Shown here piece after piece: positions 4,291-62,188 of a DNA stretch of 64,000 nucleotides. Below the pieces are notes generated by a model, which was not told where the DNA came from, searched no databases, and saw only the letters and a program-made list of their open reading frames with translations. Each line of letters opens with the position of its first letter. The first letter of the stretch is position 1. This DNA comes from Prochlorococcus sp. scB243_495L20. Lineage in GTDB: Bacteria; Cyanobacteriota; Cyanobacteriia; PCC-6307; Cyanobiaceae. Position numbers and translations under genes: made by a program. The stretch covers positions 899 through 64,898 of the forward strand of contig JFLX01000113.1 of assembly GCA_000634215.1 (NCBI GenBank). Direction: 5' to 3'.

Positions 4291-5064
4291 ATGTTACCTT
4301 CAGACCTAGTTAATTATAAAAAAAAATCTCGCAAAATCATTGCACTAACAGCATGGGACTCCATATCAGGATCTATAGCAGAACAAGCAAATGTTGATCT
4401 TGTACTAGTAGGAGATTCATTAGCAATGGTGTGCTTGGGATACAAATCGACATTGCCATTAACTTTAGAAAACATAATTTATCATACCAATGCTGTTTCA
4501 AGAGGATTTATGAAGAAAATTGAGGAACAACCTCTAGTCGTTTCAGATATGCCTTTTCTGACTTACCAATGTGGTGAAAATAAAGCTGTTGAGTATGCAG
4601 GAAAAATCATTCAGAGCACTTATGCAAAAGCTGTAAAAGTAGAAGGAGCTGAACCAGAAATACAAAAAGTTATTTCTAGATTAATAAGAATGGGAATCCC
4701 TGTTATGGGTCATATAGGTCTTACACCACAAAGCTATCTAAATATTGGATTAAAAAAACAAGGAGAAAGCTTAGCAAGCCAAGAAAAAATCAAGAAAGAG
4801 GCTTCGATACTTGAAGAATTAGGATGTTTTTCAATAGTTCTTGAACATATTCCTGATTTGCTTGCTAAAGAAATACAAAATTCTTTATCAATTCCCACAA
4901 TAGGCATCGGTGCAGGTAATTATTGCGATGGACAAGTAAGAGTTACTGCAGATTTGTTAGGCCTCAATGATGATCAACCACCATTTTGCCAACCAATTAT
5001 CCAAGGCAAGAAACTATTTAAGGATAAATTAAAAGAATGGGTAGACTCTGAAAGACTTAATTAA
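4291..5064 (+). CDS. panB: 3-methyl-2-oxobutanoate hydroxymethyltransferase
   Basis: LTAWDSISG, VLVGDSLAMV, DMPFLTY, AVKVEGA, VMGHIGLTPQ, IPTIGIGAG. Confidence 0.97.
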   Translation: MLPSDLVNYKKKSRKIIALTAWDSISGSIAEQANVDLVLVGDSLAMVCLGYKSTLPLTLENIIYHTNAVSRGFMKKIEEQPLVVSDMPFLTYQCGENKAVEYAGKIIQSTYAKAVKVEGAEPEIQKVISRLIRMGIPVMGHIGLTPQSYLNIGLKKQGESLASQEKIKKEASILEELGCFSIVLEHIPDLLAKEIQNSLSIPTIGIGAGNYCDGQVRVTADLLGLNDDQPPFCQPIIQGKKLFKDKLKEWVDSERLN

Positions 5065-6377: not shown

Positions 6378-7487
6378 ATGACGGATATCTTAGTACTAAT
6401 TTTATTTGTATTGTCTGGAGCTGCTTCAGGGTGGCTTGGTGTTGATTTATTGCCAGTAGACGTACTCAAACAGGTATCCAATGTAGAAGGTTTTAGAATT
6501 GTTTTAGCAATAATTGGTTTTTTTGTAGGATTAGCAGCTGGTTTTGTATTCCTTCAACTTAGAAAGACTTTTCTTGATCAAATAAGAACAATGCCTACGG
6601 ACTTACTAATAAGTAGGTCAGTTGGATTAATTTTAGGATTACTTGTTGCGAATCTCCTACTAGCTCCAATACTATTAATTCCCTTCCCTAGAGAGGTTTT
6701 TTTCGCAAAACCATTAGCAGCCATATTAAGCAACATTTTCTTTGGTGTTCTTGGTTATAAGTTAGCAGATACCCATGGAAGGACATTATTAAGATTATTC
6801 AATCCAAATAACGCTGATGCATATCTAGTCAATGAAGGAATTCTCCCTGCTGCAAGTCCAAAAATTCTAGATACTAGCGTAATTATTGATGGAAGAATCA
6901 ATGGTCTTTTAAGTTGCGGCTTATTGGAAGGGCAATTAATTGTTGCTCAAAGTGTAATTGATGAATTACAAACTTTAGCTGACTCAAGCAGTAATGAAAA
7001 AAGGTCGAAAGGCAGAAGAGGTCTCAAGTTATTAAAAGAATTAAGAGATTTATATGGGAGAAGACTTGTAATAAACCCTACAAAGTATGAAGGTAATGGG
7101 GTAGATGAAAAACTCCTTAAAATTACTGAGGATATGACAGGAACTTTAATTACTGCTGATTATAATCTTTCTCAGATCGCTGAAGTTAAGGAATTAAAAG
7201 TTATGAATTTGAGTGATTTGGTTATTGCTTTAAGGCCAGAAGTACAACCAGGAGAGTCACTGAATATAAAAATCGTAAGAGAAGGCAAAGAAAAAATGCA
7301 AGGTATTGGATATTTAGATGACGGCACAATGGTTGTTATTGATGAGGCAAAGAATTTTGTTGGAAGCAGATTAGACATTGTTATCACAGGTGCATTACAA
7401 ACTCCTACTGGAAGAATGGTCTTTGGAAAACTAATAAATAATCCTGAGTCAAACAAATCTTTTAAATCACCAGCGACACAGGGCTAA
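6378..7487 (+). CDS. Membrane-anchored PIN/TRAM domain protein (YacL-like)
   Basis: N-terminal TM helices, PIN motif ILDTSVIIDGR, LITADYNL, TRAM segment GIGYLDDGTMVV. Confidence 0.9.
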   Translation: MTDILVLILFVLSGAASGWLGVDLLPVDVLKQVSNVEGFRIVLAIIGFFVGLAAGFVFLQLRKTFLDQIRTMPTDLLISRSVGLILGLLVANLLLAPILLIPFPREVFFAKPLAAILSNIFFGVLGYKLADTHGRTLLRLFNPNNADAYLVNEGILPAASPKILDTSVIIDGRINGLLSCGLLEGQLIVAQSVIDELQTLADSSSNEKRSKGRRGLKLLKELRDLYGRRLVINPTKYEGNGVDEKLLKITEDMTGTLITADYNLSQIAEVKELKVMNLSDLVIALRPEVQPGESLNIKIVREGKEKMQGIGYLDDGTMVVIDEAKNFVGSRLDIVITGALQTPTGRMVFGKLINNPESNKSFKSPATQG

Positions 7488-10928: not shown

Positions 10929-10983
10929 ACTTTAATTTAATAATAAATTAGTTTTAAAATTACTAAAATACAATAAAAATTCT

Positions 10984-11229
10984 ATGCAAGAAAACGGCTC
11001 TTCAATAGAAAATCAAAAAGATGATTTTACTAATAAATCATCAACTGACAATGAATACTCAAAATGGGTAGATAATCAGGGGGATGAAGTAAAAAATGTT
11101 TTTGGATTTAATAGCAGCGCCGAGCTTGTGAATGGTAGAGCAGCTATGATTGGATTCTTAATGCTCATATTAACCGAGTTAGTTTTTAGCGGCAGGCCTG
11201 TAACTTCTTCAATTTTTGGTATTAATTAA
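10984..11229 (+). CDS. hli: High-light-inducible protein (Hli/SCP)
   Basis: Chlorophyll-binding motif AELVNGRAAMIGF followed by a TM helix. Confidence 0.93.
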   Translation: MQENGSSIENQKDDFTNKSSTDNEYSKWVDNQGDEVKNVFGFNSSAELVNGRAAMIGFLMLILTELVFSGRPVTSSIFGIN

Positions 11230-59480: not shown

Positions 59481-60353
59481 TTGATTGGAATCCTTTCTGC
59501 TTTTGGAGCTGCTACATCTTGGACATATGCGTGCTTTATTTGGCGCTCGCAAACTCAAAAATATAAATCAATAGATATTAATTTAATAAAAAATATAATA
59601 GCTTTTTTAATTTTTATACCTGCTTTTATCAATCTAAATTCTACAACTGAATTAAAAAACATATTTATCCTACTAATTAGTGGAATAATAGGTATTGGTT
59701 TAGGTGATACTTTCTATTTAAAGTCACTTCAAACAATTGGCACAAGAAAAACTTTATCTATAGAAACTCTTTCTCCGTTAATGGCAGCTTTATCAGGGGA
59801 ATTTTTTATTAATGAAAATTTAACAACTAAATCATGGGTTGGAATAACTATAGTAACGATTTCGCTATTCATAATTCTCAGAAAAGGTAACGATTTTAAA
59901 GAGGAAAACTTCTCTTTCTCAGAAAAAAATAACTTTAAGATTTTTGCTTTTCCTTTTTTATCAGTTTTATGTGCTGTTCTTGGAGGTCTTTTATCAAGGA
60001 TGGTTTTCCTTCAAAGCAATTTATCTCCTTTCCTTACAACTGAAATAAGATTATTAGGTTCAATAATTTTTTTAATTAGTCTAAAAGGATTTAAGATTAA
60101 TTTTTTCTTAAAAAAAATAGACAAAAAACAACAAAAAAGATTTTTTATTTCAATACTTCTTGGAACAAATGTAGGAATATTTCTACAACAAGTTGTGTTT
60201 AAGACCCTTCCCATAGGAGTAGGATGGGCTTTATTAAGCATATCTCCAATAATTTCTTTATTTTTTGCTAAGACTGAGGAAAGAGAAATTACCAAAAAAA
60301 TAATATTTTTTACTTGTTTTTTATTTTTTGGCTTGACATTAATAATTCTTTAA
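59481..60353 (+). CDS. EamA/DMT family transporter
   Basis: Ten hydrophobic segments in two repeats; GIIGIGLGDTFYLKSL..IG. Confidence 0.88.
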   Translation: MIGILSAFGAATSWTYACFIWRSQTQKYKSIDINLIKNIIAFLIFIPAFINLNSTTELKNIFILLISGIIGIGLGDTFYLKSLQTIGTRKTLSIETLSPLMAALSGEFFINENLTTKSWVGITIVTISLFIILRKGNDFKEENFSFSEKNNFKIFAFPFLSVLCAVLGGLLSRMVFLQSNLSPFLTTEIRLLGSIIFLISLKGFKINFFLKKIDKKQQKRFFISILLGTNVGIFLQQVVFKTLPIGVGWALLSISPIISLFFAKTEEREITKKIIFFTCFLFFGLTLIIL

Positions 60354-60430: not shown

Positions 60431-60553
60431 ATGAAAATATTAAAGAAAAAAAGACTCGGCACATTGGAAGTTTATGTTGTTTTTTTAAGCTGCATTTATG
60501 CAGGCTTTATAGGTTATAAATCTCTCTTAAATATTTTATTTACTTGGAATTAA
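60431..60553 (+). CDS. 40-aa single-TM microprotein
   Basis: Translated by hand: MKILKKKRLGTLEVYVVFLSCIYAGFIGYKSLLNILFTWN; its stop overlaps the convergent 60550 ORF. Confidence 0.45.
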   Translation: MKILKKKRLGTLEVYVVFLSCIYAGFIGYKSLLNILFTWN

Positions 60554-60684
60554 TTAATTTTTTCTAATGATTTAATCAACTTACCTCCATCTTGGTCATC
60601 ATCATCGTTTGAAGCGAAAAATAAAAAAAATATTCCTAAAGAAGCTATAGATAGCGAAATTGACAATACAGAAAGCTCATCCAT
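60550..60684 (-). CDS. 44-aa single-TM microprotein with acidic DDDDQDGGKLI tail
   Basis: Translated by hand: MDELSVLSISLSIASLGIFFLFFASNDDDDQDGGKLIKSLEKIN; motif shared with 61819..62001. Confidence 0.72.
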   Translation of the reverse strand: MDELSVLSISLSIASLGIFFLFFASNDDDDQDGGKLIKSLEKIN

Positions 60685-60776
60685 AAATTAGAATTTCTTT
60701 TATGTTAAACGAAAAAAAATAAAAGACAGTAAAGAAATACACATTCTCGAAAATAAATATTTCTTTTATTTGTAAA

Positions 60777-61076
60777 ATGAAAACACATCCGAACTATTTC
60801 GTGAAAGTTCTAATAACTTCCCCCTGTAGTGCAAGCGTAATAATTCAGTATGGAATAAAAAGTTGGCCTATTTGGGAATGTGAGCCAAGCAAATTTCAAT
60901 GGAATTACGATGATAAGGAAATTTGCTTAATTATTGAAGGTCAAGCGAAAATAAGTACCCAAAACGGTGACATTTACGTGATTAAAGCTGGAGATCTAGT
61001 TGAGTTTCCTGCTGGACTTAACTGCGAATGGGAAGTAACCAAAAGTATTAAAAAACATTATCGATTGGGTAGCTAA
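60777..61076 (+). CDS. DUF861/EutQ-like cupin (likely start GTG 60801)
   Basis: WPIWECEPSKFQWNYDDKEICLIIEGQA...GDLVEFPAG...WEV. Confidence 0.88.
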   Translation: MKTHPNYFVKVLITSPCSASVIIQYGIKSWPIWECEPSKFQWNYDDKEICLIIEGQAKISTQNGDIYVIKAGDLVEFPAGLNCEWEVTKSIKKHYRLGS

Positions 61077-61167
61077 ATTTAAGAAAAAAGATTTTTTCTT
61101 CTTTACTGTTAAGTCAATGAAGATAAAATATGGTTAATAAATAATTTTCAAGAAGGAAACTAATATT

Positions 61168-61338
61168 ATGCCTTTTACTGATCAAGAATATTTTGAGGTT
61201 ATTGAAAAAAACGAAATAGTAAAAAAGGCCTTTGAAAAAATTAAGCAAATTTGCATTGATTTACAAAAACAAACAAATTGTCCTGAAGAGGATCTAAAAG
61301 ATTTTCTTGAATTTATATCTAAACAATGGAATAAGTAA
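61168..61338 (+). CDS. 56-aa soluble helical microprotein
   Basis: Translated by hand: MPFTDQEYFEVIEKNEIVKKAFEKIKQICIDLQKQTNCPEEDLKDFLEFISKQWNK; AAGGA lies upstream. Confidence 0.65.
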   Translation: MPFTDQEYFEVIEKNEIVKKAFEKIKQICIDLQKQTNCPEEDLKDFLEFISKQWNK

Positions 61339-61402
61339 TAATTAAAAAGCCTTTTAAATGCAAAATTTAAAATTTTTATTTAGTTTTCTGAGACAATAAG
61401 TT

Positions 61403-61534
61403 CTAATCTAATTCCTTTTTTGGTTTTGTATTGATACTGGAAGTTCCCTTAGCAGCAGAAACGAAGAAAAAGAAGCCTACAATTCCTGATATACCAAATA
61501 TCGCAGCCAAAGGATCAAAAGTGAAAGAAAACAT
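61403..61534 (-). CDS. 43-aa single-TM microprotein
   Basis: Translated by hand: MFSFTFDPLAAIFGISGIVGFFFFVSAAKGTSSINTKPKKELD. Confidence 0.6.
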   Translation of the reverse strand: MFSFTFDPLAAIFGISGIVGFFFFVSAAKGTSSINTKPKKELD

Positions 61535-61818
61535 AGAATTTATAAAATCAAGATAAATAATAGTTTTTGAATCAAAATTGTATAATTATTGTTAAGTATA
61601 AAAAATAACAATCGCGCGATTCATTATGTCATTATTAGTTTCTCAGTAGGTTCAAAAAAATTATTATTCAAATTGATTTTAAGAACAAAAATATCAAAAC
61701 ATACCAAAGATCTATTCGTGCTAAAGAGAAAAGTTTTTAAAAAATATTTATAGAAATATTGAATAAAAAACGACCCAGAGCATCCACATTTGTTGTTTCT
61801 TTAGATTAATATCAATTT

Positions 61819-62001
61819 ATGACAGAATTTTACTCAACTTCTTCCTCAGTAGGTCCTTTTACAGCGATATTATGGTGCCTTTATCCAGTAGCTTTACTTT
61901 TAATTATTGAATTACTTCTGGGGGGTGGGTTTGATGATGACAATAATGACGATCAAGATGGTGGAATGCTAATACCCGCTTACTCTAGATCAGACGTTTG
62001 A
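61819..62001 (+). CDS. 60-aa single-TM microprotein with acidic DDDNNDDQDGGMLIP tail
   Basis: ORF-track protein; TM ILWCLYPVALLLIIELLL; motif shared with 60550..60684. Confidence 0.75.
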   Translation: MTEFYSTSSSVGPFTAILWCLYPVALLLIIELLLGGGFDDDNNDDQDGGMLIPAYSRSDV

Positions 62002-62047: not shown

Positions 62048-62188
62048 TTGGAGAACAACATTGATACAACTCATATTTCTCTGATTACACTTACCATCCT
62101 AATGATTTCCTCTCTAACCTGGCTCGTCTTTAGAACCCTTAAGGAAGGTAGAAAAGCTCTAACAGAAATAAATAAGGATAAATCGTGA
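62048..62188 (+). CDS. 46-aa single-TM microprotein (TTG start)
   Basis: Translated by hand: MENNIDTTHISLITLTILMISSLTWLVFRTLKEGRKALTEINKDKS; AAGGA lies upstream. Confidence 0.5.
   Translation: MENNIDTTHISLITLTILMISSLTWLVFRTLKEGRKALTEINKDKS

Follow-up and report, generated by a model that had tools for sequence, protein, structure and literature searches.

ORFs A and B and their family

The window analysed here, a 64-kb stretch of DNA from Prochlorococcus sp. scB243_495L20 (contig JFLX01000113.1), contains two very small open reading frames (ORFs), A and B, whose membrane-protein products carry nearly the same acidic motif. The window is rich in A+T (31% G+C), and its sequence matches genomes of high-light Prochlorococcus. 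ORF A, at 60550..60684 on the minus strand, encodes 44 aa: MDELS, a transmembrane (TM) segment (VLSISLSIASLGIFFLFFA) and then SNDDDDQDGGKLIKSLEKIN (full product MDELSVLSISLSIASLGIFFLFFASNDDDDQDGGKLIKSLEKIN). ORF B, at 61819..62001 on the plus strand, encodes 60 aa: MTEFYSTSSSVGPFT, a TM segment (AILWCLYPVALLLIIELLL) and then GGGFDDDNNDDQDGGMLIPAYSRSDV (full product MTEFYSTSSSVGPFTAILWCLYPVALLLIIELLLGGGFDDDNNDDQDGGMLIPAYSRSDV). The codons for DDQDGGKLI occupy 60574..60600 (-) in ORF A, and those for DDQDGGMLI 61948..61974 (+) in ORF B. ORF A is the ortholog of PMED4_15451 of strain MED4 and constitutes a high-light-clade paralog within a family of acidic-tail proteins; ORF B is the ortholog of PMED4_15491.

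According to a six-frame scan of all 64 kb, ORFs A and B are the sole sites of DDQDGG[KM]LI, and looser forms of the motif (DxDGG after an acidic run) are likewise confined to them. The codons differ, GAC CAA GAT GGA GGT in A versus GAT CAA GAT GGT GGA in B. The likeness between the two genes at the DNA level is a 34-nt inverted repeat over the motif-coding stretches, with 74% complementarity, and nothing longer is held in common; a recent DNA duplication or a mobile unit is therefore not involved. An earlier note on this DNA, made from the sequence alone, had already argued against a recent duplication, and what it gave as coordinates, sequences and codon differences for both ORFs matches the window exactly. 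It had also described a 1.1-kb unit between them. This turns out to be merely a gene order kept in the high-light clade and absent from low-light clades and phages; DNA repeats at its borders are limited to the motif-coding stretch.

A degenerate DNA pattern for DDQDGG[KM]LI, run on one genome per species (185,579 species), matches more than 119 loci, all in Prochlorococcus except for one chance-like match in Rheinheimera; chance alone could not account for so many. Most of these loci have two copies on opposite strands, ~1.37 kb apart, and both ORFs are retained in more than 100 Prochlorococcus genomes. Across ~100 loci, the start and stop codons of A and B are conserved and the motif residues are invariant, with 2–5 synonymous codons at most positions; in ORF B, for example, G48 is encoded by four codons, L51 by five and P53 by four. 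Because the residues stay fixed as the synonymous codons vary, this pattern is the signature of translated genes under strong purifying selection, which bears out the selection on the peptide suggested in the earlier note. Hundreds to thousands of near-identical relatives of both A and B are present in marine metagenomes, and their conserved portion begins and ends exactly at the limits of the ORFs in the window. ORF A is a single-copy, syntenic core gene of the high-light clade. Sequence searches of Pfam, NCBIfam and the PDB chains gave nothing significant for A or B. No Rfam match was obtained between 58.5 and 64 kb, and in DNA so rich in A+T, scans for promoters and terminators yielded no more than shuffled sequence.

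A and B almost certainly arose as paralogs long ago and have since diverged; both belong to a single family of single-pass membrane microproteins. A plain BLASTP comparison of A with B is not significant after composition correction, so their homology rests on profiles and intermediates. The A-family and B-family profiles align with an hhalign probability of 95.8% (E 8e-9) over 29 columns, which cover the C-terminal half of the helix and the tail; the TM sequences, unrelated according to the earlier note, are thus not wholly unrelated. Both N-termini read M-x-E-[LF]. In the B-family alignment, M-x-[ED]-L is followed by a helix A-I-L-W-[CV]-F-Y-P-x3-L-V-x2-E-L-x-L-R-A and by a tail of 5–7 Asp, 0–2 variable residues, G-G and [KVM]-[MG]-[ITSV]-[PR]-[VA]-Y-Q-G, the B-type hydrophobic patch being x-[ML]-[ITS]-P-[AV]-Y. 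Some B-family members read DDDDDQDGGKMIPAY, joining the Lys of A to the IPAY of B. The plan of the whole family consists of an M-x-E-[LIF]-x N-terminus, one hydrophobic helix, 4–7 Asp, 0–2 variable residues, Gly-Gly and a short hydrophobic patch; the Gly-Gly pair is almost invariant. An exhaustive phmmer search with ORF B against 1.84 billion representative proteins retrieved 79 representatives, among them phage-type proteins at E about 1e-7.

Low-light-I genomes possess three family members within 6.4 kb: a B type and two further subtypes, T3 and T4. The T3 subtype has a different helix (MGEIQ...FLFVLIIVGTYLLYEVGKAIMDNNDDDDMDGGMTMRV...). T4 is the counterpart of A (...ELQALTLSGALAVFAITWLFFGFGDDDDDGGGMMRPV), which it matches in blastp at 42% over 36 residues (E 9e-8 within the locus). 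Together, the profile homology and these low-light intermediates argue for common ancestry, not convergence, as the explanation of the motif. Judged from the alignments, it is the product of an old gene duplication in which the tail was held constant and the helices diverged. B, the widely conserved type, is common to host and phage; A, an offshoot with a Ser-rich helix, is confined to hosts. The wider short-motif family postulated in the earlier note is indeed found in picocyanobacteria, as proteins with a TM segment, a D-rich run and GG. Among cells, the family appears confined to Prochlorococcus: searches for W[CV][FL]YP...DDDDD patterns, meant to reveal members in marine Synechococcus or other cells, gave only Prochlorococcus and two chance-like matches in metagenome-assembled genomes. 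PMED4_15491 has been described as occurring only in Prochlorococcus among cells, and has been linked to two phage genes (Steglich et al. 2008, PMC2518516).

With the family alignment as input, AlphaFold2 (AF2) predicts one confident helix in ORF B, at residues 13–36, with a predicted local distance difference test (pLDDT) score of 86–90 and disordered ends. The N-tails of the family have about two acidic and almost no basic residues. The family mean of K+R is 0.1–0.4 in the N-tail and 1.5–2.5 in the C-tail, besides the Asp run. From the positive-inside rule and the analogy with Pf3 coat protein, we infer an N-out orientation (lumen or periplasm) with a cytoplasmic acidic tail. YidC substrates of the Pf3 coat type are similarly proteins of ~44–60 aa with an acidic, non-basic N-tail, one helix and basic residues after it; unlike A and B, the Pf3 coat protein is a virion protein without a poly-Asp tail, and the analogy concerns membrane insertion only.

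Residues 16–31 of ORF B (~61864–61911), LW-x-x-YP-x3-L-x3-E, weakly match helix F of microbial rhodopsins (LWxxYPxxWLxGxE) in a comparison with all PDB chains (E 0.09–0.15). This likeness to the helix of the retinal pocket is probably due to chance.

Cyanophage members and linkage to hli

The host and phage B-type proteins are, near certainly, homologous. ORF B matches the phage family phrog_7843 over residues 4–57 (E 8.9e-18, 64.8 bits). This makes it a member of PHROG 7843, like PSSM4_181, PSSM2_278 and PHM2_202, which belong to the T4-like cyanophage clusters T4-GC 437 and 273. A family-profile scan of IMG/VR yielded 67 viral loci encoding B-type proteins. Of the cultured T4-like cyanophages (cyanomyophages), 16 or more have the gene; tblastn with two phage-type sequences located it in P-SSM2, P-SSM3, P-SSM4, P-SSM5, P-SSM7, P-HM1 and P-HM2, and also in P-RSM1, P-RSM3, P-RSM6, MED4-213, P-TIM68, S-SSM7, S-SSM6a and metaG-MbCM1, always labelled 'hypothetical protein'. 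The carriers are T4-like cyanophages infecting Prochlorococcus and marine Synechococcus. The phage link needed profiles or intermediates because direct tblastn of ORF B against the cultured phages gave no match, as was also the case for the T3 type. Likewise, the strict DNA pattern of the motif has 0 matches in viral contigs, since the phage copies read GGKMI or GGGVM and not GG[KM]LI. The earlier note had mentioned similar tails in cyanophage hypothetical proteins; these loci and the phrog_7843 match bear this out.

No homologs of A were found in viral contigs, and ORF A matches phrog_7843 weakly, over 18 residues only (E 0.0056). Given also its profile-profile alignment with the B family, it would represent a subfamily related to PHROG 7843, not a clear member of it. 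The tail of ORF B additionally matches the small phage families phrog_905 and phrog_17393. Furthermore, an unrelated phage protein of ~100 aa with an N-terminal membrane helix (phrog_275) ends in DDDDDDGGALVPA, closely like the B tail. Its endings DDPWDDEDDDDDGGALVPAIRK or DDDDDGDGDVPAKLIRT occur in viral loci L190 (7994-8296) and L237 (6218-6544), and also in L221, L229 and L238. The phrog_275 gene is located a few kb from the B-type gene in the same phages, and homologs are present in P-RSM6, S-SSM7, S-SSM4 and S-SSM6a/b. One phrog_275 member gives a weak match to DUF2973 (24.2 bits, for a Pfam cut-off of 22.2).

The position of the B-type gene in the phage genomes is highly regular. It directly follows the hli03/hli04 cluster in the annotated maps of P-SSM4, P-HM2, P-TIM68, P-SSM2 and S-SSM7. 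psbA is annotated ~1.2–3 kb downstream of it in P-SSM4, P-HM2 and S-SSM7, and then psbD in P-SSM4 and P-HM2. When linkage is scored as a motif of high-light-inducible proteins (HLIPs, the products of hli genes) within 1.2 kb of the family gene, hli accompanies the family in 70 of the 72 viral loci (median distance 183 nt) and in 22 of the 44 low-light host loci. In many phages, the stop of hli04 and the start of the B-type gene overlap as TAATG, or one in-frame stop stands between the two genes. Such an overlap implies co-transcription with hli04 and, probably, coupled translation. The phage gene is also co-expressed with hli, as a component of the hli-psbA-psbD photosynthesis module: during infection in the light, PHM2_202 falls in the same middle-expression cluster as hli03/hli04 (PMC5082946 supplement). 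This placement and co-expression suggest a role in the photosynthetic membrane.

Several individual loci deserve mention. At locus L144 of the low-light-I strain MIT 0916 (4291-4803 and 6770-7320), family members are interleaved with a candidate frame for PTOX, the plastoquinol terminal oxidase, identified by eye, and with two HLIP-motif frames; the candidate PTOX and hli are stress genes that phages carry too. The long-read contig of locus L255 (26 kb) is phage-like and encodes a Prim-Pol/D5 primase. In it, a psbN-like gene (PF02468; 5443-5673, minus strand) directly adjoins the hli and B-type genes, and the contig may come from a cyanophage lineage other than T4-like. Locus L163 (QCLS01000003.1, from the Prochlorococcus single-cell genome AG-418-C09) is 189 kb long, the size of a T4-like cyanophage genome, and both its hli cluster and its B gene are of the phage type. 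The contig probably derives from a phage inside an infected cell and not from the chromosome of the host.

Neighbouring genes in the window

The region around A and B is a dense cassette of small membrane ORFs. In high-light genomes, the order is EamA(+), 40-aa ORF(+), A(-), cupin(+), 56 aa(+), 43 aa(-), B(+), 46 aa(+), and it holds even in lineages with only 55–75% protein identity, the cupin gene being sometimes missing. The cupin, 56-aa and 43-aa genes were correctly recognised in the earlier note as flanked by A and B, as seen from the ORF positions and a Cupin_3 match.

In the window, the EamA/DMT transporter gene (59481..60353, plus strand; PF00892, E 1e-22) neighbours A on the left, a position conserved in the high-light clade. 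The 40-aa hydrophobic ORF (MKILKKKRLGTLEVYVVFLSCIYAGFIGYKSLLNILFTWN; 60431..60553, plus strand) is the ortholog of MED4 PMED4_15442 and converges on A, the stop codons of the two overlapping by 4 nt; its amino acid identity across high-light lineages is 49–87%. The mRNA of PMED4_15442 (1319590..1319831) is antisense over 108 of the 135 nt of PMED4_15451, and is ~3-fold lower in light and 2.5-fold higher with the inhibitor 3-(3,4-dichlorophenyl)-1,1-dimethylurea (DCMU) (PMC2518516 Tables S2, S4). Between A and B lie a 99-aa Cupin_3 (EutQ-like) gene (60777..61076, plus strand; PF05899, E 1.9e-23), present in most, not all, high-light genomes, a 56-aa soluble ORF (61168..61338, plus strand) and a 43-aa single-TM ORF (61403..61534, minus strand). 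The 56-aa ORF is the ortholog of MED4 PMED4_15471 and recurs close to family members in low-light-I loci. The 43-aa ORF, ortholog of MED4 PMED4_15481, shows 66–88% amino acid identity across high-light lineages and is without the acidic motif. Just downstream of B, a 46-aa single-TM ORF (62048..62188, plus strand), also without the acidic motif, is kept in many high-light genomes. Transcripts of PMED4_15491, PMED4_15451, PMED4_15442, PMED4_15471 and PMED4_15481 have all been detected in MED4 (PMC2518516).

The sequence TTTGCATTGATTTACAAA at 61250-61267 (+), inside the 56-aa ORF and ~550 nt upstream of B, is the sole one-mismatch match in the 64-kb window to a direct repeat like HLR1. HLR1 is a high-light regulatory element. 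The scan of the window for such elements gave matches below chance overall.

Proposed role and relation to known systems

The reading that we put forward, tentatively and with a little less than even confidence, is that A and B are thylakoid microproteins of N-out/C-in topology that act with HLIPs in the maintenance of photosystem II (PSII), their cytoplasmic acidic tail docking a partner. Both proteins would insert into the thylakoid membrane and work alongside HLIPs in protecting or repairing PSII. The disordered acidic tail at the cytoplasmic face of the membrane would be a short docking motif, which recruits or occupies a basic surface on the partner. As A and B share the tail and differ in their helices, the same partner could be brought to two membrane neighbourhoods. 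The tail indeed looks modular: different helices carry it in conserved form, and a similar ending is found on the unrelated phrog_275 protein. Among the functions suggested in the earlier note, a docking motif for a common partner seems the most plausible. Within the proposal, the HLIP/PSII role is advanced with moderate confidence and the docking mechanism with weak confidence.

A more specific version is possible, if rather doubtful. The proteins would be HLIP partners specific to Prochlorococcus and cyanophages. They would provide a second helix that pairs with hli04-type HLIPs in the thylakoid, and their membrane-tethered poly-Asp-GG-hydrophobic tail would bring a stromal factor to PSII that is damaged or being assembled. 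Possible factors are FtsH, an enzyme of chlorophyll recycling and a protein dependent on ferredoxin. With a copy of their own, phages would direct PSII repair in the host during infection, and the host would have multiplied the tail onto the helices of A, B, T3 and T4 to address different complexes.

Several observations weigh against a role beside HLIPs and PSII, or against the evidence used for it. In the high-light host loci, the clade of the window, linkage to hli within 1.2 kb is 0 of 115; the only HLIP gene found in the window is at 10936-11226, ~50 kb away. On arrays, the MED4 ortholog of A, PMED4_15451, shows little change with light, phage infection or phosphate stress (PMC2518516). 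The phage gene neighbourhood is suggestive, not proof. Low-complexity Asp runs inflate the profile scores somewhat, and so negative a tail might conceivably cross the membrane, giving the opposite topology to that predicted. Moreover, HLIP-B fusion proteins (more than 50 database clusters, 95–104 aa), which as Rosetta-stone evidence would have argued strongly for a physical partnership and for the topology, were rejected as gene-calling or assembly artefacts, because stop codons are read through or long-read indels fuse the frames. In short-read loci, an in-frame TAA/TAG separates the hli and B genes, which callers with other genetic codes read as Q or Y. In the long-read fusions, L254 has a T-run two bases shorter than the Illumina-based L185-L187, and L255 a small deletion (1–2 nt). 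When these artefact fusions were used in AF2 as a pseudo-paired alignment, no confident helix packing resulted (pLDDT 59, predicted TM-score (pTM) 0.22).

The miscalls are not limited to the fusions. Many of the public calls P0001-P0120, P0262 and P0394-P0445, and of those at loci L254, L255 and L256, are wrong and give false long or fused proteins. Four kinds were distinguished: TGA read as W (after ...SRSDV), TAA/TAG read as Q or Y, spurious N-terminal extensions and long-read homopolymer errors.

The same acidic tail could alternatively be a site for divalent cations (Ca2+, Mg2+, Mn2+), either a loop resembling an EF-hand or Excalibur, or a poly-Asp sink of low affinity, with metal buffered or delivered at the membrane, e.g., for the Mn4Ca cluster of PSII. 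Every family member has 4–7 consecutive Asp, the gene context in phages is that of PSII, and A (D-D-D-Q-D-G) and the B of the window (N-D-D-Q-D-G) fit D/N-x-D-x-D-G. A metal-binding loop was also among the suggestions of the earlier note. However, this canonical register is kept in part of the family only: in most members, the first Gly is preceded by Q, E, F or FQ (DDDDDQGGG, DDDDDDEGGG and DDDDDDFQGGK are examples). No metal-binding domain was matched in Pfam, and the tail is predicted to be disordered and cytoplasmic, the wrong side for the oxygen-evolving cluster, so that we regard a metal site as unlikely. The Gly-Gly pair behind the Asp run recalls a processing or sorting site, a double-glycine leader or a protease tag, that would free a short C-terminal peptide. 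It is almost invariant, and Prochlorococcus is known for prochlorosins, peptides with double-glycine leaders. The pair comes after the membrane helix, though, and in A only 8–12 poorly conserved residues lie beyond it; neither a Nif11/NHLP or bacteriocin leader match (Pfam, NCBIfam) nor a C39-peptidase transporter among the neighbours was found. In the B type, conservation runs past GG (MIPAYQG), which fits recognition better than cleavage. The sorting or protease tag of the earlier note thus receives no support, and processing at this site is very hard to credit.

Two further readings start from the neighbours of A. Many bacterial single-TM microproteins are small regulators of a membrane transporter or enzyme, like AcrZ, KdpF and MgtS, and A, always tail-to-tail with the EamA gene in high-light genomes, could act so on this exporter, with no tie to photosynthesis. 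EamA, however, is beside neither the low-light A-type ortholog nor any phage copy, and hli is the sole neighbourhood that recurs across low-light hosts and phages; such a regulator seems improbable. Being short and hydrophobic, A could also be a membrane peptide like type I toxins, whose mRNA is controlled by the transcript of the convergent, overlapping 40-aa ORF. An overlapping mRNA is documented for the MED4 ortholog only: that of PMED4_15442, light-repressed and antisense over most of PMED4_15451 (PMC2518516). The level of A's own transcript is nonetheless unchanged in MED4 (PMC2518516). Besides, A is single-copy, core in the high-light clade and under purifying selection that includes the acidic tail, and it is the paralog of a gene that phages carry with hli, while the tails of type I toxins are, as a rule, basic or aromatic and their distribution is patchy and multicopy. 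A toxin function is, hence, highly improbable.

No photosynthetic organism known is more abundant than Prochlorococcus, whose photosynthesis is reprogrammed by its phages through a few borrowed genes, psbA, psbD, hli, PTOX, petE and petF. The A/B family can be described as small, putatively host-derived membrane proteins of this cyanophage photosynthesis module. A gene inside the module of many cyanomyophages, expressed with hli, with core paralogs in every high-light Prochlorococcus and without a name or a Pfam family, constitutes a concrete gap. If the role as an HLIP/PSII accessory is true, it bears on the organisation of one-helix light-stress proteins in a cell with very many hli genes and on how phages keep PSII running. 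A partnership with HLIPs, if true, would enlarge the small group of photosynthesis genes known from cyanophages by one so far overlooked. The work also flags database artefacts, i.e., stops read as amino acids and long-read indels that create false fusion proteins.

The earlier note considered the pair the best candidate in the window for an undescribed system, which stands in part. The MED4 locus tags were listed as expressed, newly detected ORFs with phage homologs, those of B included, as early as 2008 (Steglich et al. 2008, PMC2518516), and ORF B falls in the existing family PHROG 7843. In the searchable literature, only this study names the locus tags. That literature seems to contain no description of the family, of its motif or of the linkage to hli, and we found none of how A relates to B, of the conservation of the tail, of the additional low-light subtypes or of the near-universal position behind hli in phages. 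The closest known entity is PHROG 7843 itself, whose proteins have the same length as ORF B, a single helix with LW[CV]FYP...E and a poly-Asp-GG tail. All members of PHROG 7843, or T4-GC 437 and 273, are annotated 'hypothetical protein' or 'unknown function'. Unlike in the phages, the copy of high-light hosts is away from hli, and ORF A has no phage counterpart.

From their sequences, A and B are neither HLIPs nor PsbN, EF-hand proteins or double-glycine precursors. HLIPs (one-helix LHC-like proteins, PF00504) have a similar size and one helix, are common to host and phage, and are encoded beside, and co-expressed with, members of the A/B family in cyanophages and low-light Prochlorococcus. 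A and B are without the ExxNGRxAMxG chlorophyll-binding motif and without a match to PF00504 or any other Pfam or NCBIfam entry. HLIPs, for their part, have no acidic tail, and their N-terminus is stromal, whereas for A and B it is the C-terminus that is predicted to be stromal. Psb34 and Psb35 are accessory one-helix proteins of PSII assembly that modulate HLIP binding. These two and PsbN are small single-helix thylakoid proteins, as A and B are proposed to be, that act with HLIPs and with PSII intermediates, and PsbN has an acidic C-terminal tail. There is no sequence similarity, and the analogy is functional only: a profile search of all PDB chains, PSII assembly intermediates included, gave nothing significant for A or B, and neither matches the PsbN profile PF02468 at E up to 10.

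For the tail, there are parallels among soluble proteins. The tip of E. coli SSB (DDDIPF) and the tail of the ribosomal stalk proteins P1/P2/L12 are acidic C-terminal tails that dock many partners on basic or hydrophobic pockets. Like those of A and B, they consist of a disordered acidic run and then a short hydrophobic tip. They are unrelated in sequence and belong to soluble proteins, whereas the motif of A and B is tethered to the membrane; the A/B family illustrates the reuse, with different helices, of a short linear motif anchored in this way.

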